64,000 nt of DNA from Escherichia phage vB_EcoM_G2133, in sequence record MK327928.1, one strand, 5' to 3'. Position numbers and translations under genes: made by a program. Every line of letters starts with the position of its first letter. Position 1 is the stretch's first letter. Positions 3,901 through 44,142 of the stretch are shown here, piece by piece. Under the pieces are notes generated by a model, which worked only from the letters and a program-made list of their open reading frames with translations, was not told the origin of the DNA and did no database searches.

Positions 3901-5103
3901 TTATTTTGTAATAATGTCAAACTGTTCTTTAAAGCAGAAGCTTGAATCTTGATGTTGATACAAAAATTCATACGCTTTTTCACGTTCGCGGTCATAAAGA
4001 GCTCGGTCAGATGACAGTTCTTTAATACGCTCAAACGTTGATTCCATATCATTTTCATCAAACCAAATGATACCGCTATCATGCGAGGTCAAAGGAGTAT
4101 TATCAACACGGAATTTTAAATTTTCGCCAGTAGATTTCCAAAATACCGGAATTGTTCCACATGCACCAAGCTCGAGATGAGTATATTCTAAAGAACGCTG
4201 TAGATATTTTTTATCCAACTTACTCAGCTGATAACCAAATCCGGATTTACTCATGCGTTCAAGCATTTCGCTATTTACATAACGGTCAAGAATTTGCGTT
4301 GGCAAATTAGGAGCAATTTTAATTTGGTCTACTTGATGAAGACGATAATACTCGTATGGAATTCCTTTTTCTTTAATAGGAATGAACGCTGGAGAACGTT
4401 CCAGACCTTCCATAATAGTACTTAGTCCTGCAGGTTTAAGATGTTTTTCATGAAAATCAAACATCTGATAAAAACCTTTCCATGTAGTCGTACGACCAAT
4501 CCAACGGTTGATATTCATGTTAATTTCAGAAACATCTTTCCAGTAGGTTGATCGAACCTTCGCAATATCCATAGGAGGCTGAAAGTTATATACTGTCGGC
4601 GCTTCTTCAATATCATCAAACAGAGAAACTGTTTCCGGATACCATTCTTTCATCAGAACTTTATTAAAATCGCCATTATCAGAATGGCTAAAAATAACAT
4701 CAGCTCGACGAACAGTTTCTTCTAATCCCAAATTTCGACGCAAAGAAAGAGAAGAATGGTCATGCTGATAAACTACAACACGAACAGAAGGTTTAATGTT
4801 ATCAATAATTTTTTTATAGTTATTAATAGTGTCTTCTTCAACCGAAGTAGCAGGAACTGAATTGATAATTAGAATATCACAATCATTTACCAGCTTAAGT
4901 GTTTTATCGTATTCTTTTGCCAATAAAACCGGAATTGAAAATGATTTATAATCATGCGCGCAATTACGAGTAAATGATTTATCTTTAGCATAAACCAAAG
5001 TCACTTCATGACCATTTTTAATAAACCAATCACGTTGCTCGAGTGAGAATTTAGTTACACCACAACCTTCAAGACCTCGAGCCATAAAAATACATACTTT
5101 CAT
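3901..5103 (-). CDS. a-gt: DNA alpha-glucosyltransferase (glucosylates hydroxymethylcytosine DNA)
   Basis: 400 aa; near-identical to the T4 alpha-glucosyltransferase sequence as I recall it (MxxCIFMARGLEGCGVTKFSLEQRDWFIKNGHEVTLVYAKDK...). Confidence 0.9.
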   Translation of the reverse strand: MKVCIFMARGLEGCGVTKFSLEQRDWFIKNGHEVTLVYAKDKSFTRNCAHDYKSFSIPVLLAKEYDKTLKLVNDCDILIINSVPATSVEEDTINNYKKIIDNIKPSVRVVVYQHDHSSLSLRRNLGLEETVRRADVIFSHSDNGDFNKVLMKEWYPETVSLFDDIEEAPTVYNFQPPMDIAKVRSTYWKDVSEINMNINRWIGRTTTWKGFYQMFDFHEKHLKPAGLSTIMEGLERSPAFIPIKEKGIPYEYYRLHQVDQIKIAPNLPTQILDRYVNSEMLERMSKSGFGYQLSKLDKKYLQRSLEYTHLELGACGTIPVFWKSTGENLKFRVDNTPLTSHDSGIIWFDENDMESTFERIKELSSDRALYDREREKAYEFLYQHQDSSFCFKEQFDIITK

Positions 5104-5153
5104 TTAATATCCTCTTTGTTTTGGTTTATTTTACCAAAAATTTATAAAGCAAT

Positions 5154-6597: not shown

Positions 6598-6675
6598 TTT
6601 CACCTCTTAGCTCAATTCATAGATCTATTATATCATAATATTTGAAGATCTATCTTAAAGCATAGAGGATATCAG

Positions 6676-6945
6676 TTATCTAAGTAAGCAGTATGCTTGG
6701 AACACTTTCTCCATCATCTTTTTAAATTCATGAATATCTATGTAATGATCATTAATATCAGCGCGATATAAAAAGTCTAAAAACTTTTTATGGGTATTAG
6801 AATATTTACTTCCAGTTAATTCAGAAACATGGCTTTCCCAATATCCAACACCAGTTTTATTTGGGAAAAATGAAATTTTCATGTATTGGTCAACATAGAA
6901 AATACCAAAATTTTCAATAGCAATAGAAATATTAATTAATTTCAT
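6676..6945 (-). CDS. Hypothetical protein
   Basis: 89-aa ORF; ATG overlaps the upstream stop (ATGA). Confidence 0.45.
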   Translation of the reverse strand: MKLINISIAIENFGIFYVDQYMKISFFPNKTGVGYWESHVSELTGSKYSNTHKKFLDFLYRADINDHYIDIHEFKKMMEKVFQAYCLLR

Positions 6946-9145: not shown

Positions 9146-9616
9146 TTAATCATGTTTCCACACCCCATCGGTATTTGACCAAAGCCGCTGATTATCTGAT
9201 CCTCGCCACAGCTTTTTAGTCGGAAGATTTTTCTCATACTTCCCATCAATAATAACATCAACATATTTAAGCATTTCTAGTTGTTTAATATCTTCAAACT
9301 TATATCCTGTCCACAACCAAATGCTTTTATTGGGATAAAGATTTTTTACTGTTTGAACAATACAATGAATAACATCTCGATTGTCAGGATAGAGAGGGTC
9401 TCCTCCAGTTATAGTCAATCCTTCTATATAATCATTATTCAAACATTCAATTAATTGTTCTAGTGTTTCACCAGTGAATGGAATACCATTTCTAGCATTC
9501 CATGTTGATTTATTATAACACCCTTCACATTTATGCAAACAACCTGTAACGAAAAGAACGACCCTGCAACCAGGGCCATTCACAAAATCGCAAGGATAAA
9601 ATCTATCATAATTCAT
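9146..9616 (-). CDS. nrdG: Anaerobic ribonucleotide reductase activating protein NrdG (radical SAM)
   Basis: 156 aa; CxxxCxxC cluster motif (GCLHKCEGC); stop overlaps the nrdD start region. Confidence 0.9.
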   Translation of the reverse strand: MNYDRFYPCDFVNGPGCRVVLFVTGCLHKCEGCYNKSTWNARNGIPFTGETLEQLIECLNNDYIEGLTITGGDPLYPDNRDVIHCIVQTVKNLYPNKSIWLWTGYKFEDIKQLEMLKYVDVIIDGKYEKNLPTKKLWRGSDNQRLWSNTDGVWKHD

Positions 9617-11430
9617 TGGTGTTTAACCCTATGCATGATTTCTTTATTTTTGCCGAGATTAAATCCGCGTTCGTTCGGATTTCCCAAATAACCACATGTT
9701 CTTCTTATGGTATTCATCTTTTTAGGATCAGTTTCTCCACAAATAGAACAAACAAATCCGTTTTCAGTAGGAGTCATTTCATGGGTACTTCCACATGTAA
9801 AACATTTATCTACCGGCATGTTAACACCAAAATAATCTAAATGTTGTGCAGCATAATCCCATACAGCCTCAAGACCTTTTAGATTATTTTTCATATCAGG
9901 AAGTTCAACATAAGAAATGTGACCACCTGTCGCAATGAAATGATATGGCGCTTCACGAGAAATCTTTTCAAACGGAGTAATATTTTCTTCTACTGAAACA
10001 TGGAAACTGTTAGTGTACCAGCCTTTATCAGTAACATCTTTTACACTTCCATATTTTTCTGTATCGAGTTTACAGAAGCGATAACAAAGGTTTTCAGCAG
10101 GAGTAGAATATAAACTAAAAGCAAATCCGGTTCTTTCAGTCCACTGTTTAAGATGGGCATTCATTTTAGTTAAAATTTCCTGTCCAATATCACGACCGAC
10201 AAGAATATTCAATTCGTGAATACCAATGTATCCTAGGGACACTGAACTTCTACCGTTTTTAAATAACTCAATTATGTCGTCATCAGGTTTAAGACGAACC
10301 CCGAATGCACCTTCTTGGTAAAGAATAGGAGCAACAGTAGCTTTAACTCCTTTTAAGGAACTAATTCTACACATCAAAGCTTCAAAACATAAATCCATTC
10401 GTTCATTGAATAATTCAACAAATTTCTGTTCATTGAACTGTGTTCCAATATAAGAATCTAACGCTATGCGAGGAAGATTCAATGTTACAACACCAAGATT
10501 ATTACGTCCATCAAGAATTTCATTACCAGTCGAATCTTTCCATACGCTCAAGAAACTACGGCAACCCATTGGAGAAACAGGAACAGATGAACCAGTGATA
10601 GCTTTATTGTTCTTAGCTGAAATAATATCAGGATACATTCTTTTGCTTGCGCACTCTAAAGCAAGCTGTTTAATATCATAGTTCGGATCGTCTTTATAAA
10701 GATTAACACCTTCTTCAACGAACATAACAAGCTTAGGAAAAATAGGAGTTATCCCATCACGACCGAGACCTTTAATACGATTTTTCAGAATTGCTTTCTG
10801 AATCATTCGTTCAGTCCAGTCAGTTCCCGTACCAAATGTAATTGTTACAAAAGGTGTTTGTCCGTTTGAACTAAAGAGAGTATTTACTTCATATTCATAA
10901 GCTTGGAATGCATCGTATACGTCTTTTTCTGTTTTAGATTGAGCATAATTCAGTGCATCGGCGATTTGCCATTTTTCTGCATCCTCAATATGTTTTGCAT
11001 AGGTACGTTTAACATAAGGAGAAAGTACTTTATCTACATTCGCAAAAGTCGTTCCGCCGTACTGGTGTGAAGCAACCTGTGCAGTAATTTGTGCCATAAT
11101 TGCAGTAGCAACACCGATTAATTTAGGAGTTTCAATCTGCGCATTACCAAGCTTAAATCCGTTCTCAAGCATTCCTTTTAAATCTACTAAACAACAATTA
11201 GTAAATGGAAGAGCAGGGGAATAATCAATATCATGGAAATGGATAATTCCGCTTTCATGCGCTTTCATAATAAAAGACGGGACCATATTTTTGGCAATGT
11301 GTTTAGACACAATACCAGCCATAAGGTCCCGTTGAGTTGGAAAAACACGAGAATCTTTATTAGCATTCTCGTTTAAAAGGTCTTTATTAGTTTTATGAAT
11401 CAATCCTTCAATTTCTTTTTCAATTGTCAT
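9613..11430 (-). CDS. nrdD: Anaerobic ribonucleoside-triphosphate reductase NrdD, uninterrupted
   Basis: 605 aa continuous ORF; C-terminal glycyl-radical and Zn-ribbon region (CFTCGSTHE...CSICGETD...RRTCGYLGNP). Confidence 0.92.
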   Translation of the reverse strand: MTIEKEIEGLIHKTNKDLLNENANKDSRVFPTQRDLMAGIVSKHIAKNMVPSFIMKAHESGIIHFHDIDYSPALPFTNCCLVDLKGMLENGFKLGNAQIETPKLIGVATAIMAQITAQVASHQYGGTTFANVDKVLSPYVKRTYAKHIEDAEKWQIADALNYAQSKTEKDVYDAFQAYEYEVNTLFSSNGQTPFVTITFGTGTDWTERMIQKAILKNRIKGLGRDGITPIFPKLVMFVEEGVNLYKDDPNYDIKQLALECASKRMYPDIISAKNNKAITGSSVPVSPMGCRSFLSVWKDSTGNEILDGRNNLGVVTLNLPRIALDSYIGTQFNEQKFVELFNERMDLCFEALMCRISSLKGVKATVAPILYQEGAFGVRLKPDDDIIELFKNGRSSVSLGYIGIHELNILVGRDIGQEILTKMNAHLKQWTERTGFAFSLYSTPAENLCYRFCKLDTEKYGSVKDVTDKGWYTNSFHVSVEENITPFEKISREAPYHFIATGGHISYVELPDMKNNLKGLEAVWDYAAQHLDYFGVNMPVDKCFTCGSTHEMTPTENGFVCSICGETDPKKMNTIRRTCGYLGNPNERGFNLGKNKEIMHRVKHQ

Positions 11431-18732: not shown

Positions 18733-18762
18733 ATAGTACCACAGAGGAACAGTCTTGTAAAC
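18733..18762 (-). promoter_or_regulatory. T4-type early promoter
   Basis: GTTTAC, 18 nt, TACTAT on the minus strand, followed by the conserved CAACTATCAACTAC box. Confidence 0.55.
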
Positions 18763-19168: not shown

Positions 19169-20137
19169 TTATTTCAGAAGAGTAACCTCAGCAATTTCTT
19201 CCCAACCGTTTTTGTCGGTCATAATAAAGTCAGCAAGATAAAGTGCAGTACGCAGTGAAACATTGCGTAAACGGTTAACATTGACTTTCATCCATGATAA
19301 TGCTTTATAAGTTTCTTCATCAGAAAGACCGCGCTTTTGCATCATGTCGGTTGAAAGAATAACATCTTCAACCCTGACCATAATTTCTTCATTAGTGTGA
19401 ACACCCAAATCTAAATAAACTGAGCGGGACACTAATGCTTGTAAATGTGGAGCAAGTTTAGTACCACGGTCTAATTCGCGGTCAATATCAACGTTTGTGA
19501 TAAAAACAATCGTTCCTTTAAATTCAAACTCACGCTCAATGCCTTTTTCTTCTAAGTAAGAAGATGCAGTGCTCCAGCAGACTTTACGGGTCTCTCCAGT
19601 GTCCAGAGCAGCTTTCAGAAGATTAAGAATGTCCATATCAGAGAAAACATCCACATCATCAATCAAAAGGACAGAATTCTCTTCACGATTATTCCAGAGC
19701 TGTTCATAAAGACCGATACCAGAGATTTTACCGTTAATGCTTTTATATTCAATGTATCCAATATCATTTGCTTTATTTAAAGCTTTATCTAAAGAATACG
19801 TTTTACCAATACCTGCTGCTCCCGAGATAATTAATGAACGAATGTTTCCGTTAATAATACCATTCGTCATCATTCCCATAACATTAAATCTTTTATTAAT
19901 GCGGGTTTTCATATCTTCATATGATTCTTTAACTTCTTCAACTTTTACACCATCATATGAAATGTCTGATTTGTAAACCCAAACACCGCGACGTTTACCG
20001 TCAATTTCAACAAAAACTTTACCATCTCCTTGTGCATCTACTGGAGCATTATCTGGGAACCATTCGCCTAAGAGCTCAAAAGTTCCAGAGATTTCTTTAC
20101 CGAAGTAGATACCCTTATTGATAGTTACAGTTTTCAT
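19169..20137 (-). CDS. P-loop NTPase (Walker A and B), function unknown
   Basis: Start at the ATG at 20137 (track start is TTG); Walker A SGAAGIGKT and Walker B LLIDDVD. Confidence 0.6.
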   Translation of the reverse strand: MKTVTINKGIYFGKEISGTFELLGEWFPDNAPVDAQGDGKVFVEIDGKRRGVWVYKSDISYDGVKVEEVKESYEDMKTRINKRFNVMGMMTNGIINGNIRSLIISGAAGIGKTYSLDKALNKANDIGYIEYKSINGKISGIGLYEQLWNNREENSVLLIDDVDVFSDMDILNLLKAALDTGETRKVCWSTASSYLEEKGIEREFEFKGTIVFITNVDIDRELDRGTKLAPHLQALVSRSVYLDLGVHTNEEIMVRVEDVILSTDMMQKRGLSDEETYKALSWMKVNVNRLRNVSLRTALYLADFIMTDKNGWEEIAEVTLLK

Positions 20138-20174
20138 TTTATTCTCCAAATCTGTATCAGTAGTTGATAGTTGT

Positions 20175-20204
20175 ATAGTACCATAAAGCTTTATGCTTGT
20201 AAAC
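20175..20204 (-). promoter_or_regulatory. T4-type early promoter
   Basis: GTTTAC, 18 nt, TACTAT; conserved CAACTATCAACTAC box downstream; A/T-rich upstream element. Confidence 0.55.
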
Positions 20205-20230
20205 CGTTTTGTGAAAAAATTTTTGAAATA

Positions 20231-20254
20231 AAAAAGGGGACCTCTAAGGCCCCT
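20231..20254 (-). terminator. Intrinsic terminator
   Basis: GGGG(a)CC-tctaa-GGCCCC hairpin followed by U5 on the minus-strand RNA; lies just 3' of ORF 20263..20748. Confidence 0.5.
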
Positions 20255-20262
20255 TTATGCTT

Positions 20263-20748
20263 TTATTCCATTTCTATTATATGCATGTTCTTTTTGCTAT
20301 CAAAATATATGTTTTTAACTGTTAACTCCGAATTAATTGGCAATAAAAACTCTCTTTCATAATCTACCATACAAAGGTTATCATAAAGCTTGTTAAGCTT
20401 ATCATCGTCAGTTTGGCCAGATTCTTCAATTGCGATTAAATTTTCTAAAATGTCAATCATAGCAGTCGAATAGTCAAAAACGTTTGCATTTTTTAACACT
20501 ACTAAAACATTAGTCATATAGCGTTCTGCAGCAAACGTTTCAGCTATATGAGACTCACTGCTAAAGGAAGTTATTCTTTTAAATTTGATTCTCCTATTAA
20601 CTTCAAACTTATAAGATAGCACTTCCTCTATTGTAAGTCCTCTAAAAAGTGTGTCTTTAATCTCAAGTTTGTCTTTAATGTAATCATTAACACGCTTATG
20701 ATTAAAATTATTAATTTTGTTGCCAAGGCATTGCATTAAAATATGCAT
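20263..20748 (-). CDS. Hypothetical protein
   Basis: 161-aa ORF with ATG start and GAGGAG Shine-Dalgarno, flanked by its own promoter and terminator. Confidence 0.5.
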   Translation of the reverse strand: MHILMQCLGNKINNFNHKRVNDYIKDKLEIKDTLFRGLTIEEVLSYKFEVNRRIKFKRITSFSSESHIAETFAAERYMTNVLVVLKNANVFDYSTAMIDILENLIAIEESGQTDDDKLNKLYDNLCMVDYEREFLLPINSELTVKNIYFDSKKNMHIIEME

Positions 20749-20794
20749 TGTATTCTCCTCAATTTTTAAAGAGCAATTAATTAACTACACGTAT

Positions 20795-20824
20795 ATTATA
20801 ATATGCTTTGCGGCAGAAGTAAAC
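20795..20824 (-). promoter_or_regulatory. T4-type early promoter
   Basis: GTTTAC, 18 nt, TATAAT on the minus strand. Confidence 0.55.
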
Positions 20825-20850
20825 AACTTTGTGACGTCATTTTAAACAAA

Positions 20851-20871
20851 AAAAGGAGCCCGAAGGCTCCC
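20851..20871 (-). terminator. Intrinsic terminator
   Basis: GGAGCC-uucg-GGCUCC hairpin followed by U7 on the minus-strand RNA. Confidence 0.6.
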
Positions 20872-20873
20872 TA

Positions 20874-21884
20874 TCATTTATAATAACTTCGATGGTTTTC
20901 AAGATAGACTTTCTCAAGGAAGTCATCCCAAAAACCCATGTCCACTTTTTGCTGCATACCGTTCTTAGAAGCTTCAGTAGATGCTGCTTCTACTTGATCG
21001 ACCACATCTTCCAAAAACTCTTGAACGGTTTTAAATGGATGTTTACCCAACTTCACGTCGAGAATAAATGGAGCGTCTTGAAGTGGATAAACCAAGTCGC
21101 CAGTTTTGTAAATTTCCAATAGTTGAAGTCCACCACGACAGGCATGGCTCAGAGCTTTCCAGTCAATACCTTCATTGGCTTCGGCCTTACGAGCACGTTC
21201 ACCATATTCAGCATCTAATTTGTTCAGTGACTGCTTAAGCTCAATAAGAGAAAGAGTTGTCTGATATTTACGACCCAACACTGTGTAAAACGTTTGTGGG
21301 CCTGTTTTCTCATGATTATGGAACACCCATTCACAGAATTCGTTTTCTGGAAGACGATGCTTAATATCTTCAACTTTAGTACGACGCTGCTTAATGGAAC
21401 CGTCTTCTTGGTAATCAACCCATTGCTCAGGGATTTGATTAACTACTTTCAATACATCACGTAATGCAGCCAAACGAGAACCCTTGACACCGTATTTAGA
21501 AGCTTGCTTGCGGACATATCCTAAATAGGATTTCATGTTAGTCGTATAAAAACGAGAACGGTTGTCTTGAATAAACTTCCATACATCAGGCAAATCGGAT
21601 TTAACCACTAGTTCAGGTGGAGTGTGAAGCATATCCAACGCTACAGTTTCACCATCTGCCGCTAATTTAAAGAAATATTTAAGACTGTATAGTTCATGGT
21701 CAATATCATCTTTAGTGTTTTTAGATGATGTGTTGTTAGTGTTTTTACTCATGTGCTCTTTGACATTTCCGATAAGAATATCACGAGCAGGAGGAACAAA
21801 AATTTCTTTAAAATCTACATCAGATTCTGGGGTAGAAGTTCCATAAAGATGACTACCAAAATAAGACTTAACTACAGTTTTCAT
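20874..21884 (-). CDS. Nucleotidyltransferase-fold protein (Pol-beta-type GS...DxD motif), function unknown
   Basis: Motif FGSHLYGTSTPESDVDF (G-S, ten residues, DxD); start is uncertain (ATGs at 21884, 21899, 21908) and overlaps the 3' end of the HNH gene. Confidence 0.55.
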   Translation of the reverse strand: MKTVVKSYFGSHLYGTSTPESDVDFKEIFVPPARDILIGNVKEHMSKNTNNTSSKNTKDDIDHELYSLKYFFKLAADGETVALDMLHTPPELVVKSDLPDVWKFIQDNRSRFYTTNMKSYLGYVRKQASKYGVKGSRLAALRDVLKVVNQIPEQWVDYQEDGSIKQRRTKVEDIKHRLPENEFCEWVFHNHEKTGPQTFYTVLGRKYQTTLSLIELKQSLNKLDAEYGERARKAEANEGIDWKALSHACRGGLQLLEIYKTGDLVYPLQDAPFILDVKLGKHPFKTVQEFLEDVVDQVEAASTEASKNGMQQKVDMGFWDDFLEKVYLENHRSYYK

Positions 21885-22647
21885 TATTAGACCTTTCATA
21901 ATCTTCATTAAATTGTACAATCAATCGATGATAATTAGATTTTGGATATCCTAATTTACTTATATAAGTTCCGAATGACCCACGTTTAGGTCTATTTAAT
22001 TTAATCCATAACTTATAAAGTAAGTCATAGTCTTGCCAATGTTTACCAGTTCTTTGTCTAATTTTAGATGAATTTGATTGTTTCTTTTTAGTTTCAAAAT
22101 TATTCAAAGATTTTTTGACTGCAGCAGAGTGTTTTTCTTTAACTCCCGGTCGTTTAAAAGCAGCTTTCACCCCTTTAGATATTTTTTCTTTAACTTCCGG
22201 TTTGTTTTGTGCTTCTAACTGGGATTCTGAAATTTTAGCCCTTATTTCAGGAAGACTTAATGTTATCGAACGTTTTTCTCTGTATTCATTAGACTTCCAC
22301 ATTTCTTTCATTGTATTAGAATGTATTTTTGAAAATTTTTCTCTAACTAACTGATATCCTCTTGAAGTTAATTTGAGATTTCTTCCTAAAGAATCTTCTC
22401 CAAAATTATAAAATGACCACCATGCATAAATTAATCCAGGCGAATTATAATGAATTTTAGCTAAAAGCCAATGGGCTATAAAATGCTCTCTAGCTGTTAA
22501 TAAAACTAGATTATCAGAATCATCATTACCACCAATACAAGATGGAATAATATGATGCTTTTCCGTATAAAAATTTAATTTAGATTTATCTAATTTTCTG
22601 AGTTTTCCTTTCTTAATTAAATTATTATATACTTTAGTATAATTCAT
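21868..22647 (-). CDS. HNH homing endonuclease (Mob family; mobD-like by position)
   Basis: 259 aa; HHIIPSCIGGNDDSDNLVLLTAREHFIAHWLL HNH motif and lysine-rich C-terminal repeat motifs. Confidence 0.7.
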   Translation of the reverse strand: MNYTKVYNNLIKKGKLRKLDKSKLNFYTEKHHIIPSCIGGNDDSDNLVLLTAREHFIAHWLLAKIHYNSPGLIYAWWSFYNFGEDSLGRNLKLTSRGYQLVREKFSKIHSNTMKEMWKSNEYREKRSITLSLPEIRAKISESQLEAQNKPEVKEKISKGVKAAFKRPGVKEKHSAAVKKSLNNFETKKKQSNSSKIRQRTGKHWQDYDLLYKLWIKLNRPKRGSFGTYISKLGYPKSNYHRLIVQFNEDYERSNNENCS

Positions 22648-22721: not shown

Positions 22722-23255
22722 TCACTTCGAAATCATAGTTGGAATGACAGAATCAAGATAAGTCTTTAGCGCAATAGCTTCGTCTTTGGTAAATGTGACA
22801 ATATGTGATCGAAAATCGTCAATTTGGCGAATAGTTAAGACATCTCCCTCTTCATAACATTTTGATACATTTAAAAGAGTTTCATCATTCTGATTGCAAG
22901 CGTTAGTAATAATAGCATTGCAATTTTTGAGCCATTTTAAACTATGTTTTCTTTCATTAGAATAATAAAAATATTTAATCTTAGCTATAAAACTATCCCA
23001 ATGGATAACTGATAAACACATTGACTCACTTTTAATATTAAATCCTGGGCATGAAGAATAAAAATGAATTTTGTGCTCATCATTGATGCTTACAATTTTA
23101 TCAGTATAAGGATATTCAATTTGGGTTAAATGAATAATTTCACTAGATGTAAAATACAGCATATCGTCTTCTTGCGTCAAACGATACATATTATTTACTT
23201 TTTCTATAGCCAATTCACCAAAAAGTGGACTAACTTCTAATACTAATCGTTTCAT
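22722..23255 (-). CDS. Hypothetical protein
   Basis: 177-aa ORF with ATG start. Confidence 0.45.
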   Translation of the reverse strand: MKRLVLEVSPLFGELAIEKVNNMYRLTQEDDMLYFTSSEIIHLTQIEYPYTDKIVSINDEHKIHFYSSCPGFNIKSESMCLSVIHWDSFIAKIKYFYYSNERKHSLKWLKNCNAIITNACNQNDETLLNVSKCYEEGDVLTIRQIDDFRSHIVTFTKDEAIALKTYLDSVIPTMISK

Positions 23256-23256
23256 A

Positions 23257-23523
23257 TTAATCCTTTTTATTTGCGCTGATTTGTTCTAAAATTTTAGAGT
23301 ATTCCTTTGTATCAGATTTACGTACAATCGATACGCTATACGGCATACTATCGGTGTCTTTTATAAAGCGTTCCAAATGACACTCTAATAAAATTTCTGG
23401 ATTATAAATCGTGTACATCAAATTACCTGTTGCTCCACGATATTGACAGATTTCTACTGATTGAACATCATTCCATAATTTTGTTAAGACCAAATCACCT
23501 ACTTCTAATTTAGGAAAGCCCAT
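23257..23523 (-). CDS. Hypothetical protein
   Basis: ORF trimmed to the ATG at 23523. Confidence 0.4.
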   Translation of the reverse strand: MGFPKLEVGDLVLTKLWNDVQSVEICQYRGATGNLMYTIYNPEILLECHLERFIKDTDSMPYSVSIVRKSDTKEYSKILEQISANKKD

Positions 23524-23524
23524 G

Positions 23525-23710
23525 TTATTCACCAATTAAAGTTTCAATATAAGAATCAAGATTTACTTTAGCTTCTTCCATAAGAGTTTTGTATTTAATC
23601 TTGTTGGCATGTCCGGAGAAAGCTGATTCATCAATAATTGTTGATGTATGAACAGCTTTACTATACGTCTCAATTAATTCTCTTAATTTAAAAGCCTGCT
23701 CACTTGTCAT
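23525..23710 (-). CDS. Hypothetical small protein
   Basis: 61-aa ORF; its ATG overlaps the stop of an upstream mini-ORF (TAATG). Confidence 0.4.
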   Translation of the reverse strand: MTSEQAFKLRELIETYSKAVHTSTIIDESAFSGHANKIKYKTLMEEAKVNLDSYIETLIGE

Positions 23711-23842: not shown

Positions 23843-23872
23843 ACTATACCATAACCTTGCCAACTTGTAAAC
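23843..23872 (-). promoter_or_regulatory. T4-type early promoter
   Basis: GTTTAC, 18 nt, TATAGT on the minus strand. Confidence 0.5.
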
Positions 23873-24234: not shown

Positions 24235-24438
24235 TTAAACTCTCGTATTATGATCGATAATTTCATCAAGAAACATATCTAACGCTTCTAAAGCATTATC
24301 AACTTTAGCTTCAAGTTCATCAGCACCTTTATTTGCAATGCCTGACGAAAACCAAGCAAAGTCACTAAGTTCCTCGTCTGCCTTGCGAATTGAAGCCACT
24401 AATTCCTTGATTTTATCCGCTTGCTCTACACTAATCAT
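24235..24438 (-). CDS. Hypothetical small acidic protein
   Basis: Start at the ATG at 24438, overlapping the upstream stop (TAATG). Confidence 0.4.
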   Translation of the reverse strand: MISVEQADKIKELVASIRKADEELSDFAWFSSGIANKGADELEAKVDNALEALDMFLDEIIDHNTRV

Positions 24439-24626
24439 TATTCCACCACATATGAAAGAGAGAATATTGCACACGCCATGTGAGTTGCAACTTCATCACA
24501 CATATTATAACGTTTCTTAAGAAGTTCTACAAGTTTTTCACTGGTAACTTCATCCATGTTGACGAAAAAATCACCATTAATGATGACGTAGATATTTCCT
24601 TCTTGATTAAGTGCTTCAATTTTCAT
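24438..24626 (-). CDS. Hypothetical small protein
   Basis: Start at the ATG at 24626 with GAGGAG Shine-Dalgarno, just downstream of an early promoter. Confidence 0.4.
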
Positions 24627-24654: not shown

Positions 24655-24684
24655 ATAGTACCACGGCTCAAACGAAAAGTAAAC
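24655..24684 (-). promoter_or_regulatory. T4-type early promoter
   Basis: TTTAC, 18 nt, TACTAT on the minus strand. Confidence 0.5.
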
Positions 24685-24694
24685 AGGTAAAATG

Positions 24695-24716
24695 AAAAAA
24701 GTCTCCCGAAGGAGAC
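24695..24716 (-). terminator. Intrinsic terminator
   Basis: GUCUCC-uucg-GGAGAC hairpin followed by U6 on the minus-strand RNA. Confidence 0.6.
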
Positions 24717-24721
24717 TAATG

Positions 24722-25108
24722 TTATTCGAGGGAAAGAAGATATTTACTCTGGTAAAACATTCCAGTAATATCATCTATAGTGCTTTGGATGGCTGGAGGC
24801 ATTTCTTTATAAATGCTGTTAGATTGGTCTAATATGCGATCAATCATTTTAATTGTGTCGGTAGGAAGTTTACTGGCATCTGGAATTGAAGGTGTGTATT
24901 TTCTACCAGAATACCCCAAATACTGCTCACCAAATTTGTCAATCAAATCTGGTAACTCGGAGAAAATAAAATCGTATGCTTTATGTCTAGCATAACTTTT
25001 AGTTTCAAAATGTGCAGAATGAAAATAAGCTTGTGCAGCCATTAATAAACCTAAGTATTCATCTGCCTTTGAAGGTTTTCCACTTTGTGAAAAGTCGCTG
25101 AATTTCAT
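24722..25108 (-). CDS. Hypothetical protein (rI.1 position)
   Basis: 128 aa; ATG overlaps the rI stop (ATGA). Confidence 0.45.
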
Positions 25109-32258: not shown

Positions 32259-32672
32259 TTAGTAAATTGATTTACCAAAGTATTTGTACCAAGTCGGACG
32301 TTGAGCAATTTTTTCATCTAAGCGTGCTTGACTTATCGCAATGGACGCTTCGGACGGGACATAATTATTACGAAATTCTACAGGAATGTCGGAAATATCC
32401 TGGACTGTCGTGTCCTTGATTTTGAAACCACGTTTCAAACATTCAGCGATTAGCTCGATTTGACGTAAACGTAAAAATTCGAGTTTGTCGTAAAAGAATG
32501 TTACGTGACCTGTGCCTAAGATAAATGTTGGAGAGATTTTAAAATCCTTTACACGTTTACCGTTTTGAACATGTTTACGGACTGCACCAAATACGCGTGG
32601 TAATTCACGATACTCAGCCATAAGATGTTGGTCGGTCAATTCAAAAACAAGTGTTAAATTGATACGGGTCAT
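32259..32672 (-). CDS. denV: Endonuclease V (pyrimidine-dimer DNA glycosylase) DenV
   Basis: Start at the ATG at 32672; MTRINLTLV...[19 protein letters not shown] matches T4 endonuclease V. Confidence 0.88.
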
Positions 32673-32699
32673 AATTTCCTCCAAGTAGTTGATGAATGT

Positions 32700-32729
32700 A
32701 TAGTATCAAAACCCTTGGAGGAAGTAAAC
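32700..32729 (-). promoter_or_regulatory. T4-type early promoter upstream of denV
   Basis: GTTTAC, 18 nt, TACTAT on the minus strand. Confidence 0.55.
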
Positions 32730-36821: not shown

Positions 36822-36864
36822 TTCATTCTCCAAGTTGTTTTCTGTATCAGTAGTTGATAGTTAT

Positions 36865-36894
36865 ATAGTACCATGGAAGAACAGGGATGTAAAC
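36865..36894 (-). promoter_or_regulatory. T4-type early promoter
   Basis: GTTTAC, 18 nt, TACTAT, followed by the CAACTATCAACTAC box. Confidence 0.55.
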
Positions 36895-37020
36895 CGTTTT
36901 GTGAAAAAATTTTTAAAAAGTTTTAGGGAATTCTAGGGTCAGGAGGGGCAATTAAAAGATAGGATAATATATTATAAAGGGTATAAACTAAATGATGCCT
37001 AGAGAGGCTCGGAAAGGCCT

Positions 37021-38568: not shown

Positions 38569-38655
38569 TGGTACGAGAAGTGGGACTCGAACCCACAAGG
38601 AAATCATTCCGCAGCATTTTAAGTGCTGTGCCTTTACCAATTTGACTATTCTCGC
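38569..38655 (-). tRNA. tRNA-Leu (UAA), long variable arm, CCA encoded
   Basis: Acceptor GCGAGAA/TTCTCGT, anticodon loop CTTAAAA, T-arm GGTTCGAGTCC, 3' ACCA. Confidence 0.85.
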
Positions 38656-38661
38656 TCTATA

Positions 38662-39270
38662 TTATTTATTACGTGAAAAAGATTGTTCTATCAATTCTGG
38701 ACACTTTCGTTCTATCCATTTTCTAGCTTTTTGTGGGCTTATACCTATTATTTTAGCAGCTTTACTAACCCATCCAAATTTAGAATAATCGATTTTAACT
38801 AATTCTTCGTAAATTTCATCAGTTAAAATCTTTTCATTAATATTTACCAGTAAATGATATAATTTATTATCATTAGCAATTTTAATGAATCTTTTATAGT
38901 TTCCGCCTTTACTTAAACCTAATGAAGTAATTGCAGATGATATAGTAGCCGAATTTAATAATGCGTTTAAAATTTCTTCATCACTAACATTATAACGCTT
39001 TTTATTATTTTTAATATTTTTACCAGCAAAAGTATCAGTTTGCGAATGGCAATTTGGACATAATAATCTTAAATTTGATTTAAGATGATTTTTATTATTT
39101 CCATCAATATGGTCTAATTGCAGAACAATATGCTTATTTTGCCATTTTGAAATTTTACAAATTGCACACTCATATGGAAAAATATTTTCTTTTATTATTT
39201 TGTCTTTCAGCTTTCCTGTACTAAAATTTGGATGTTTTCCTTCAAAAATTTCAGCTAATTTAGTATCCAT
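38662..39270 (-). CDS. HNH endonuclease with C-terminal helix-turn-helix-like domain, adjacent to the tRNA array
   Basis: Start at the ATG at 39270; CAIC...LQLDHIDGNNKNHLKSNLRLLCPNCH HNH and zinc-finger motif. Confidence 0.65.
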   Translation of the reverse strand: MDTKLAEIFEGKHPNFSTGKLKDKIIKENIFPYECAICKISKWQNKHIVLQLDHIDGNNKNHLKSNLRLLCPNCHSQTDTFAGKNIKNNKKRYNVSDEEILNALLNSATISSAITSLGLSKGGNYKRFIKIANDNKLYHLLVNINEKILTDEIYEELVKIDYSKFGWVSKAAKIIGISPQKARKWIERKCPELIEQSFSRNK

Positions 39271-39380
39271 AATATAATTCCCAATTATTAACAAAGGCTC
39301 TCTAACAAGAACCCTTGATGATAGAGGGTATTAATCGGTGCGGTATGAGTTAATAATAACAAATAATTCTTAAAGCATAT

Positions 39381-42658: not shown

Positions 42659-43318
42659 TTAATTTATTAGACTTCTTAAACGAACAGAAGTCATAAATGG
42701 AAATTTTTCTAAAGTTGGCTTTCGCCAATATCTTGGATGACAAGTTGATTTAAAATCAAGAACAATTTTCTTTGCTTCATCAATAGTGTTAACTCCAAAG
42801 TTATCTAACATTATTTTCTTTTCTTTTTCCCACCGTTTATTAGCTAAAGCAGATTGAAGCTTTTTGTTTTTAAATGTGTCATTTTTTCTAGAATGAGTTG
42901 TTCCTTGTGTCGGACTCCATCCTCTTCCTAAAATAAATCCCTCAGGAATTATATCTCCATCATGCAATTTTATACATCTTTTACCATTATTATAATATTT
43001 TCGTCCAGTTTGTGTATTTGAAATATTATTTGCATGTTTTCTTTTTAACCAACCATAAACTTTATTATTTCTCCTAACATATTTAGTTGAAACCGTCATT
43101 TTTATGGCTGCATAAGATAATTTTAAAGAATTTGGGTGTATTTTTACTAATAGCTGATGTGCAACATAATGCTCTTCTGGAGTTAAATCAACCAAGTTAG
43201 AAGCATCATTACTACCGCCTAAACATTTCGGAATAATATGATGTCTTTCTTTATATCCAGTAAGGGCTCTATTGCGAGCCCTATCAATTAGTGAATTATA
43301 AATTTTTTCATAATTCAT
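42659..43318 (-). CDS. HNH homing endonuclease (Mob family) inserted between genes 2 and 3
   Basis: Start at the ATG at 43318, overlapping the gp2 stop (ATGA); motif [32 protein letters not shown]. Confidence 0.65.
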
Positions 43319-44142
43319 CGTACATTGCTCCAAACTTTGTTTGCAGAGAAACGTTTTCCTTTTGAGTAGAAGCTTTGGAGTGGCATCAACACAACGTTCG
43401 CCCAGTCTTTCGGGGCGATTTCAACAAGGCTACCCATAATATTACCAGGTATATATGCCTTAATCATTTGGTCTGCACCCCTAAATCCTTTCACTTGACT
43501 CCAATCAATTTTTAATTTCGTTTTATTAGTAATAGTAGGTGTATTTGCATATTGCTTTAAAAGCTCTTCTAGAAACTGTTGACGAGCTTTAGGTGGAATA
43601 TAGTGCAAGTTCAATCCGTACATTAAATTATGCTTACCTAAACCAAGGTAAATTATCAAAGGAAATTTATCCCAGTAAGGAAGAGTTTCCTTGTGTTTAG
43701 CATCATAAGCAAAAGCATATATTCGTCCCGGCTGCGGGCGAACAACTTTATGTCCTTTTACTTGCTTAATAGTTTCAGCAAACCACTTTCTGGTTTTATT
43801 ATTAATTGCTGCGCCTTCATTACGAATTTTATCGCGCAATGTTTGTCTGAATGAATTTATCATAAGCAGTTGTCTTTCTTGCTTATTGAGCTTATTCATT
43901 GGTTTTGATTCAAGCTTTTGAATCTTTTCAGCCGTTTTAATTCCTGAAGCATATTTTGACATTGCTGAAGTAAACGTAGAGTATTTGATTCCTCTTTCTT
44001 CGGCAAATTGCTTTCCTGTCATTCCTTTTGCTTTGGCCTTTTTATATTCAAGACCTATCTGAATCCATTTCTTTTCGTTTAATGATTGCTTAACCTTTGG
44101 AACTTGGGGAGTGCTTTCATTAATTATTTGAAAAATAGCCAT
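43315..44142 (-). CDS. 2: DNA end-protector protein gp2
   Basis: 275-codon ORF; size and position match T4 gp2. Confidence 0.85.

Follow-up and report, generated by a model that had tools for sequence, protein, structure and literature searches.

Early promoters and stem-loops in T4-like phages

Junctions at which a terminator runs into an early promoter are already known in exactly the lineage considered here, where they are called PeSLs (promoter-early plus stem-loop) (Arbiol 2010; Comeau 2014). For these elements the T4/PST consensus reads TTTACW-N17-TAYWAT, and the stem-loop lies shortly before the promoter (PMC4122927). Promoter and terminator activities of PeSLs from RB49 and phi1 have been demonstrated with lacZ reporters and mini-circles have been detected (PMC2839356). 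One of these stem-loops cut lacZ expression about as much as rrnB T1, and Arbiol et al. term the PeSL stem-loops 'terminator/attenuators' (PMC2839356). Exchange through homing endonucleases is also acknowledged by the PeSL authors (PMC4122927). The early promoters of T4 are UP/-35/TGn/-10 promoters (Hinton 2010, PMC2988021), in which GTTTAC at -36 to -31 is the -35 consensus (Nolan et al. 2006, PMC1524935).

The stretch of DNA analysed here (the window, 64,000 nucleotides) is a Tequatrovirus (T4/T2-like) genome with a G+C content of ~35% and with minus-strand genes over its first ~44 kb. Three sites, designated A, B and C, are located in the nrdC–mobD–rI early region, and the gene order in the window is that of the T4 nrdC.x–mobD–rI early region. 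Since the genes and their order run on the minus strand, the sites are to be read on that strand. A 6.2-kb query around the sites matched 794 phage records, mostly Tequatrovirus, at 95-97% identity. Sites A, B and C are considered to be PeSL-type composite elements of a T4-like phage, and the probability of this reading as a whole is put at roughly 0.85.

Anatomy of the terminator-promoter junctions

On the minus strand, every site has the same order of parts: a stop codon, a G+C-rich hairpin that begins 1-9 nt further on, six or seven T residues, GTTTAC, an 18-nt spacer and TATAAT or TACTAT. The distance from the end of the stem to the -35 box is 28 nt at site A, 31 nt at site B and 15 nt at site C, and an A/T-rich tract can be read upstream of the -35 box at all three. 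Each promoter is followed by a GGAG-containing Shine-Dalgarno sequence and, 5-8 nt after it, by an ATG that lies 30-45 nt past the -10 box. An earlier note on this DNA had described a hairpin and U-tract followed within about 30 nt by GTTTAC-N18-TAYWAT at three places, and this arrangement was confirmed at all of them.

Site A follows the nrdC.11 homolog, a nucleotidyltransferase gene (20874-21884, minus strand; 96.4% nucleotide identity to T4 nrdC.11) that matches PHROG 388 and Pfam RlaP and ends in a TGA stop codon at 20876-20874. Putative terminator A (20844-20872, minus strand) begins 1 nt after this stop codon and consists of the hairpin AGGGAGCC-UUCG-GGCUCCUU (20872-20853) and a T7-G-T3 tract, with a folding energy of -13.5 kcal/mol (z = -2.7). 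The hairpin is found at the equivalent position in T4, VEc20, T2, SA20RB, fPS-65, G50 and Geo, and Moon and STML-198 have another stem with the same UUCG loop there. Predicted early promoter A (20795-20824, minus strand) comprises GTTTAC (20824-20819), N18 and TATAAT (20800-20795), has no TGn and heads an open reading frame of 161 aa (ORF161; 20263-20748, minus strand). This promoter is kept upstream of ORF161 in VEc20, T2, Moon and STML-198.

Putative terminator B (20227-20256, minus strand) starts 9 nt after the ORF161 stop codon, and has a GGGGCC/GGUCCCC stem (20253-20236) with an A3/U3 extension and a T6-A-T3 tract. The hairpin (-12.9 kcal/mol, z = -2.0) contains a bulge and a non-UUCG loop of 3-5 nt. 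It accompanies ORF161 in VEc20, T2 and Moon, and in Moon the stem is a perfect 7 bp (GGGGACC/GGUCCCC). Predicted early promoter B (20175-20204, minus strand), with GTTTAC (20204-20199), N18, TACTAT (20180-20175) and TGG at -16 to -14, heads the nrdC.10 homolog (19169-20137, minus strand; 322 aa, 97.6% nucleotide identity to T4 nrdC.10), which matches PHROG 1250 and, weakly, AAA/STAND NTPases. About -56 to -46 is occupied by AAAAATTTTTT, which resembles a distal UP subsite. Promoter B is identical in T4, SA20RB, VEc20, T2, fPS-65 and Geo, and the depositors of SA20RB and fPS-65 label it a predicted early promoter.

Site C lies between the rI.-1 homolog (24722-25108, minus strand; 128 aa; PHROG 858, DUF5856), which is the last gene before the terminator, and the mobD.5 homolog (24438-24626, minus strand; 62 aa; PHROG 3024, E 4e-43, and the T4 map), which is the first gene after the promoter. 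Putative terminator C (24689-24717, minus strand) begins 4 nt after the rI.-1 stop codon with the hairpin AGUCUCC-UUCG-GGAGACU (24717-24700), followed by a T6 tract; the hairpin (-10.8 kcal/mol, z = -4.9) is kept in T4. Predicted early promoter C (24655-24684, minus strand) has GTTTAC (24684-24679), N18, TACTAT (24660-24655) and TGG at -16 to -14, and heads the genes from mobD.5 to nrdC.11. The T-tract of the terminator falls at about -52 to -47 relative to this promoter, so the terminator tail and the UP region would overlap physically.

All three hairpins have the form by which an intrinsic terminator is recognised, namely a G+C-rich stem-loop and then a U-tract on the transcribed strand, and in A and C the G+C stems are closed by C(UUCG)G loops. 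The T-tracts are found on the minus strand only, and bidirectional terminators were rejected, the plus strand having no T-tract. A middle promoter of the T4 type was rejected as well. The MotA box, (a/t)(a/t)(a/t)TGCTTtA, is centred at -30 and replaces the -35 element (PMC1524935), whereas the spacers here have no TGCTT at the required distance and the -35 position is occupied by GTTTAC. The sequence of the sites therefore supports intrinsic terminators abutting predicted early promoters of the T4 class. Depositors of other Tequatrovirus genomes have annotated these elements as predicted early promoter and terminator, and the elements at the nrdC.11/nrdC.10 and rI.-1/mobD.5 junctions are near-identical in T4 itself. 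The T4 records NC_000866 and AF158101 carry no promoter or terminator features, a literature search for T4 transcript 5'/3' end mapping gave nothing usable for sites A, B and C, and a T4 multi-omics paper does not mention these genes.

Frequency of the composite in the window

The pattern GTTTAC-N18-TAYWAT occurs 16 times in the window, and every copy is on the minus strand; shuffled sequences give an expectation of 0.07. Terminator-like sites are about threefold enriched between 15 and 30 kb (19 vs 6.4 expected in shuffles), and terminators A, B and C are the top minus-strand sites of this kind in that interval. In a stricter scan of the early region, taken as the first ~44 kb of the window, three of nine minus-strand terminator-like hairpins had a promoter starting 16-33 nt after the stem; by a rough estimate, about 0.3 would be expected by chance. 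Chance co-occurrence of terminator and promoter was rejected on the motif and terminator counts relative to the shuffles.

Only three of the 16 strict promoters have a hairpin and U-tract within 70 nt upstream, and the composite is therefore a subset of early promoters and not the rule. A further 6-8 of the 16 have a stem-loop that encloses the -10 box. Outside the hexamers, the 16 promoter regions are little more alike than background (mean 33% vs 28%), with a few pairs at 54-61%; apart from these pairs, no long conserved repeat common to all 16 regions was found. This weak likeness suggests that the homology on which recombination could draw is short in this lineage (8-40 bp).

Predicted transcription units

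In the arrangement proposed here, the Rho-independent terminator would end transcription arriving from the upstream early gene, and its T-tract would merge with the A/T-rich UP region that belongs to a strong early promoter of the sigma-70 type (GTTTAC, TGn, TAYWAT); this promoter would restart transcription for the following gene or genes. With a fresh promoter placed after a terminator, upstream read-through should neither inflate downstream expression nor occlude the promoter. Efficient termination, firing of the early promoters and protection from read-through and occlusion at sites A-C are inferred from their sequence and by analogy with other elements, the RB49/phi1 PeSLs assayed with reporters.

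The hairpins could instead be mainly leaky attenuators or stabilisers of mRNA 3' ends, in which case most polymerases would read through, the units would be uninsulated and the promoters additive. Short stems of 7-8 bp at -11 to -13.5 kcal/mol are consistent with such leakiness, as is the published name 'terminator/attenuators' (PMC2839356). However, the anatomy of the hairpins is canonical, with a G+C stem, two C(UUCG)G loops and six or seven U on the sense strand only, and the RB49/phi1 stem-loop was about equal to rrnB T1 in reducing lacZ expression (PMC2839356). Predominant leakiness is considered doubtful, although it deserves some weight.

The earlier note had taken the small genes next to these sites to be autonomous transcription units, and this can be upheld for a single gene. 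ORF161 is the only gene here with both its own promoter and its own terminator: promoter A (20824-20795), ORF161 (20748-20263) and terminator B (20256-20227) make up a predicted one-gene unit of 570 bp, with terminator A ahead of it. The claim does not hold for site C, where the promoter heads a predicted unit of ~3.8 kb and roughly 10-11 genes, in the order mobD.5, mobD.4, mobD.3, further small ORFs, mobD.1, mobD, nrdC.11 and terminator A, the next terminator being at 20872. Between terminators C and A there is an internal promoter-like sequence, TTTACA-N17-TATAGT (23843-23871, minus strand), which is kept in T4. Nor does the claim hold for nrdC.10, after which a canonical terminator is absent before nrdC.9 and the next promoter at 18762.

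Site C also differs from sites A and B in its history. The 901 bp surrounding it are contiguous in 498 of 502 matching records, and because of this contiguity in related genomes, site C is a stable, conserved operon boundary and not the edge of a polymorphic cassette. The suggestion in the earlier note that the arrangement marks horizontally exchanged accessory genes thus fails at site C, and it stands at sites A and B, where ORF161 is polymorphic and has moved between genera.

ORF161 and its distribution

By sequence, ORF161 is a short paralog of the ModA/ModB family of ADP-ribosyltransferases, with 30% identity to T4 ModB (E 6e-15) and 27% to T4 ModA (E 6e-10) in BLASTP searches. It matches PHROG 832, and sequence searches of Pfam, NCBIfam and PDB gave no matches. 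At >90% amino acid identity it is present in 43 phage records and absent from T4; its hosts at this threshold are T2 and other Tequatrovirus phages, Moonvirus (Moon, CF1) and Gelderlandvirus (STML-198). Its position is invariably between the nrdC.11 and nrdC.10 homologs, which are the resident genes upstream and downstream of the cassette. The earlier note had proposed that cassette content be compared among related phages, and this comparison revealed a variable locus. ORF161 is found in only 43 of the 520 records that match positions 20150-20873; in sampled records that lack it, only the promoter-B module, about the first 105 bp, is matched. At least six alleles of this locus were recognised, and the nrdC.11-nrdC.10 interval has at least six sizes in the sampled genomes (approximately 715 bp when empty, 977, 1196, 1337, 1456 and 1817 bp). 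The alternative inserts are a 66-aa ORF, and a 49-aa ORF accompanied by a DUF4031 ORF. Every one of these inserts starts with a TTTAC-N17/18-TAnnnT promoter of its own but lacks a terminator, and cassettes placed here in other phages usually follow this pattern.

Cassette exchange between nrdC.11 and nrdC.10

Horizontal exchange of the ORF161 cassette is well supported by sequence comparisons between genera. Cassette identity between Tequatrovirus and Moonvirus is 95-98%, compared with 70-74% for the flanking genes. In the window and Moon, nucleotide identity is 94.9% for ORF161, 74.4% for nrdC.10 and 69.8% for nrdC.11. Between VEc20 and Moon, identity is about 98% over the tract that starts at the -35 box of promoter A and ends in the UP region of promoter B, and 36-48% beyond this tract. 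The breaks in identity are sharp and fall at -35 boxes and T-tracts. From these limits it follows that promoter A and terminator B travel with ORF161, and that the recipient supplies the hairpin upstream and the promoter downstream. T2-like genomes and the window possess the whole unit (promoter A, ORF161, terminator B), which T4 lacks and which has crossed between genera.

The layout around the cassette provides a possible route for its loss or gain. In VEc20 a perfect 32-bp direct repeat, CCCTTTTTTATTTCAAAAATTTTTCACAAAGT, which spans the T-tract, UP region and -35 box, is found on both sides of the cassette. The corresponding repeat shortens to 19 bp in T2 and to 8 bp (CCTTTTTT) in the window, and T4 has one copy; the T4 locus is a single hybrid junction in which hairpin A leads into the UP region and promoter B. 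A repeat-flanked layout of this kind is one from which PeSL-PeSL recombination would delete the cassette (PMC2839356). The T-tract/UP/-35 module may act as a short patch of portable homology, and recombination between two modules would then delete or insert whatever lies between them, possibly through mini-circles. We infer exchange by such module-module recombination, again by analogy with other elements, namely those of RB49/phi1 for which mini-circles were detected by PCR. The positions of the junctions vary between comparisons, from the T-tract to the -35 box to the hairpin loop, which argues for exchange driven by homology or microhomology and not for a site-specific process. STML-198 retains only part of hairpin B: a break within the loop joins it to the leader and -10 box of a different promoter, and judged by its sequence this truncated element is a 'half PeSL' of Comeau et al.

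Alignment of the minus-strand early region to T4 gave 17 indels or replacements with 34 breakpoints. A strict early promoter lies no more than 70 bp from ten of these breakpoints, which belong to seven of the 17 events, where 2.1 such breakpoints are expected (P about 5e-5), but the null places breakpoints at random over the whole region, and as promoters and viable junctions are both intergenic, the signal is inflated and the P value optimistic. Among the remaining differences from T4, some correspond to the homing-endonuclease route, as the window lacks mobB, mobC and the nrdD intron together with I-TevII, and some have no promoter close by.

These data also bear on the simpler view that the sites are plain boundaries of compact operons, at which a terminator and a promoter share roughly 100 bp of intergenic space with no special role in exchange, and that ORF161 polymorphism arose from ordinary illegitimate or general recombination. 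Such a view is compatible with the invariance of site C (498/502 genomes), with the presence of an upstream terminator at only 3/16 early promoters, with the low overall similarity of the promoter regions and with the direct repeat of only 8 bp in the window. It does not readily account for breaks in identity exactly at -35 boxes and T-tracts, for direct repeats of 19-32 bp made of T-tract and UP sequence that flank the cassette in T2 and VEc20, for several promoter-led alleles at one locus, or for the enrichment of breakpoints near promoters. Moreover, mini-circles and junctions have been seen experimentally for the PeSLs of RB49/phi1 (PMC2839356). Compact boundaries without a role in exchange are considered unlikely.

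An alternative route for the spread of ORF161, in place of recombination between modules, would be co-conversion as the nearby endonuclease gene mobD homes, and this was also considered. The mobD gene (21868-22647) lies about 1 kb upstream of ORF161, and homing endonucleases are a recognised exchange route in these regions (PMC4122927). Nevertheless, T4 has mobD and lacks ORF161, whereas T2, Moon and STML-198 carry ORF161 and have no mobD-sized gene annotated beside nrdC.11. In addition, the high-identity tract shared with Moon has its limits at the promoter modules and shows no extension in the direction of mobD. On the distribution of the genes and the limits of this tract, co-conversion driven by mobD was rejected as highly improbable.

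A more speculative extension of the PeSL reading is that the terminator/UP/-35 module is an active hotspot, dependent on structure or on transcription, and that loci of the nrdC.10/nrdC.11 type are integron-like docking sites. Cutting of hairpins or cruciforms, or promoter R-loops that prime recombination-dependent replication, might be the mechanisms involved. If so, promoter-led early-gene cassettes, in this case one encoding a Mod-type ADP-ribosyltransferase, would be captured and exchanged across Tevenvirinae genera, but such an active role is considered very unlikely.

Comparison with described elements

The likeness to published PeSLs is close. All three sites fit the T4/PST promoter consensus, with a hairpin just upstream, an A/T-rich tract, a Shine-Dalgarno sequence and a start codon. 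Where one phage has an ORF between two PeSLs, a relative has a single chimeric PeSL whose junction falls in the A/T-rich region, and 'half', or degraded, elements occur in both cases. Like PeSLs, sites A and B lie in a hyperplastic region beside genes that differ among relatives, whereas site C has no associated plasticity. The window further differs from RB49/phi1 in that conservation between elements extends over 8-40 bp compared with about 100 bp, and in that the form with an upstream terminator is confined to 3/16 promoters.

As promoters, the sites resemble those of T4 early genes in having GTTTAC at -36 to -31, TGn (B and C), a TAnnnT -10 box, an A/T-rich UP region and a location on the strand of early transcription. 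The sole difference, which is not substantive, is that promoter A has no TGn but a perfect TATAAT. Hairpins with C(UUCG)G tetraloops were reportedly described in intercistronic regions of T4 by Tuerk et al. in 1988; hairpins A and C, placed directly after stop codons, are of this type, and hairpin B differs in its non-UUCG loop. Integron cassettes offer an analogy only, in that one hotspot gathers interchangeable small accessory-gene cassettes in varying combinations. Unlike an integron, the phage locus has no integrase and no attC or attI, each cassette brings its own promoter, and the junctions are variable.

Implications

The findings are mainly confirmatory: as a natural instance, the window illustrates the published PeSL model very cleanly, and it raises no question beyond those of Arbiol, Comeau and Krisch. 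Their value for annotation is in showing where early transcription units probably begin and end, and in marking ORF161, with its Mod-like ADP-ribosyltransferase, as an accessory gene that was exchanged recently.

Stem-loops enclosing the -10 box

Of the 16 strict early promoters (GTTTAC-N18-TAYWAT) in the window, all on the minus strand, 6-8 carry a strong stem-loop around the -10 hexamer. The stem-loops are found at promoters 40537, 40207, 36557, 32729, 28899 and 18762, with promoters 24684 and 15785 as marginal cases. The spacer holds the 5' arm and the 3' arm lies at about +1 to +25, with folding energies of -13 to -23 kcal/mol and z-scores of -2.8 to -5.9. These structures correspond to other subclasses of the promoter-early stem-loops (PeSLs) of T4-like phages. 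At promoters 32729, 28899, 18762 and 24684 the Shine-Dalgarno sequence lies inside the 3' arm, so that the ribosome site would be sequestered by the stem-loop in RNA reading through from upstream, but would be free in RNA started at the local promoter. Such translational gating is not discussed in the PeSL study of Arbiol 2010 (PMC2839356).

Probable rearrangements at early promoters and other differences from T4

Downstream of its copy of ORF161, the accessory gene upstream of nrdC.10, Salmonella phage STML-198 (L007 2986-3060) has a terminator hairpin that ends after the 5' arm and is fused directly to ATGATACTAT and an nrdC.10-type leader, downstream of which there is now an extra ORF of 59 aa. 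This junction is a recombination scar within the element. In the window, the promoter-leader region of nrdC.10 (20135-20235, minus strand) has a near-duplicate at 36825-36940 on the same strand; the two share aaaaattttttcacaaaacgGTTTACA...ATGGTACTATa.aactatcaactactgatacaga and, hexamers excluded, are 61% identical. The T4 counterpart region (L006 37622-37721) matches the window nrdC.10 promoter and leader (20135-20228) at 83%. The copies constitute a dispersed repeat, on which longer-range rearrangements could rest.

In addition, a denV-like gene (32263-32708, minus strand) with 79% nucleotide identity to T4 denV lies between e and ipIII in the window, whereas in T4 denV lies after ipII. Strict early promoters lie at both ends of the gene (32729 and 31989), so this seems to be a further promoter-to-promoter relocation, in this case within the internal-protein locus. 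Five further segments are present in the window and absent from T4 (1375-2244, 6670-6931, 23253-23707, 38655-39275 and 42661-43330), and none of the five has a strict early promoter within ~900 bp. Conversely, T4 has two homing-endonuclease genes, mobB and mobC, and a group I intron in nrdD with I-TevII; the window lacks all of these, at sites of about 5091-5119, 9596-9616 and 10892-10895.

ORF161 and the annotation of its neighbours

Homologs of nrdC.10 and nrdC.11 are named 'thioredoxin' in many deposited genomes, and neighbouring genes in the T2 record AP018813 are named 'integrase/recombinase', 'tail sheath protein' and similar. All of these names look like annotation carry-over: profile searches gave only weak AAA/STAND NTPase matches for nrdC.10 (19169-20137), and identified nrdC.11 (20874-21884) as an RlaP-type nucleotidyltransferase. 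ORF161 (20263-20748, minus strand; 161 aa), which lies between them, had no match in sequence searches of Pfam, NCBIfam and PDB. It is a short paralog of T4 ModA and ModB, with 30% identity to ModB (E 6e-15) and 27% to ModA (E 6e-10). R73-G74 of ModB is aligned with R36-G37 of ORF161, the S-x-S region with SFSS and the EQE motif with E-R-E, while the first ~37 residues of ModA/ModB are missing. ORF161 may represent a third, accessory ADP-ribosyltransferase, present in T2-like phages and not in T4.
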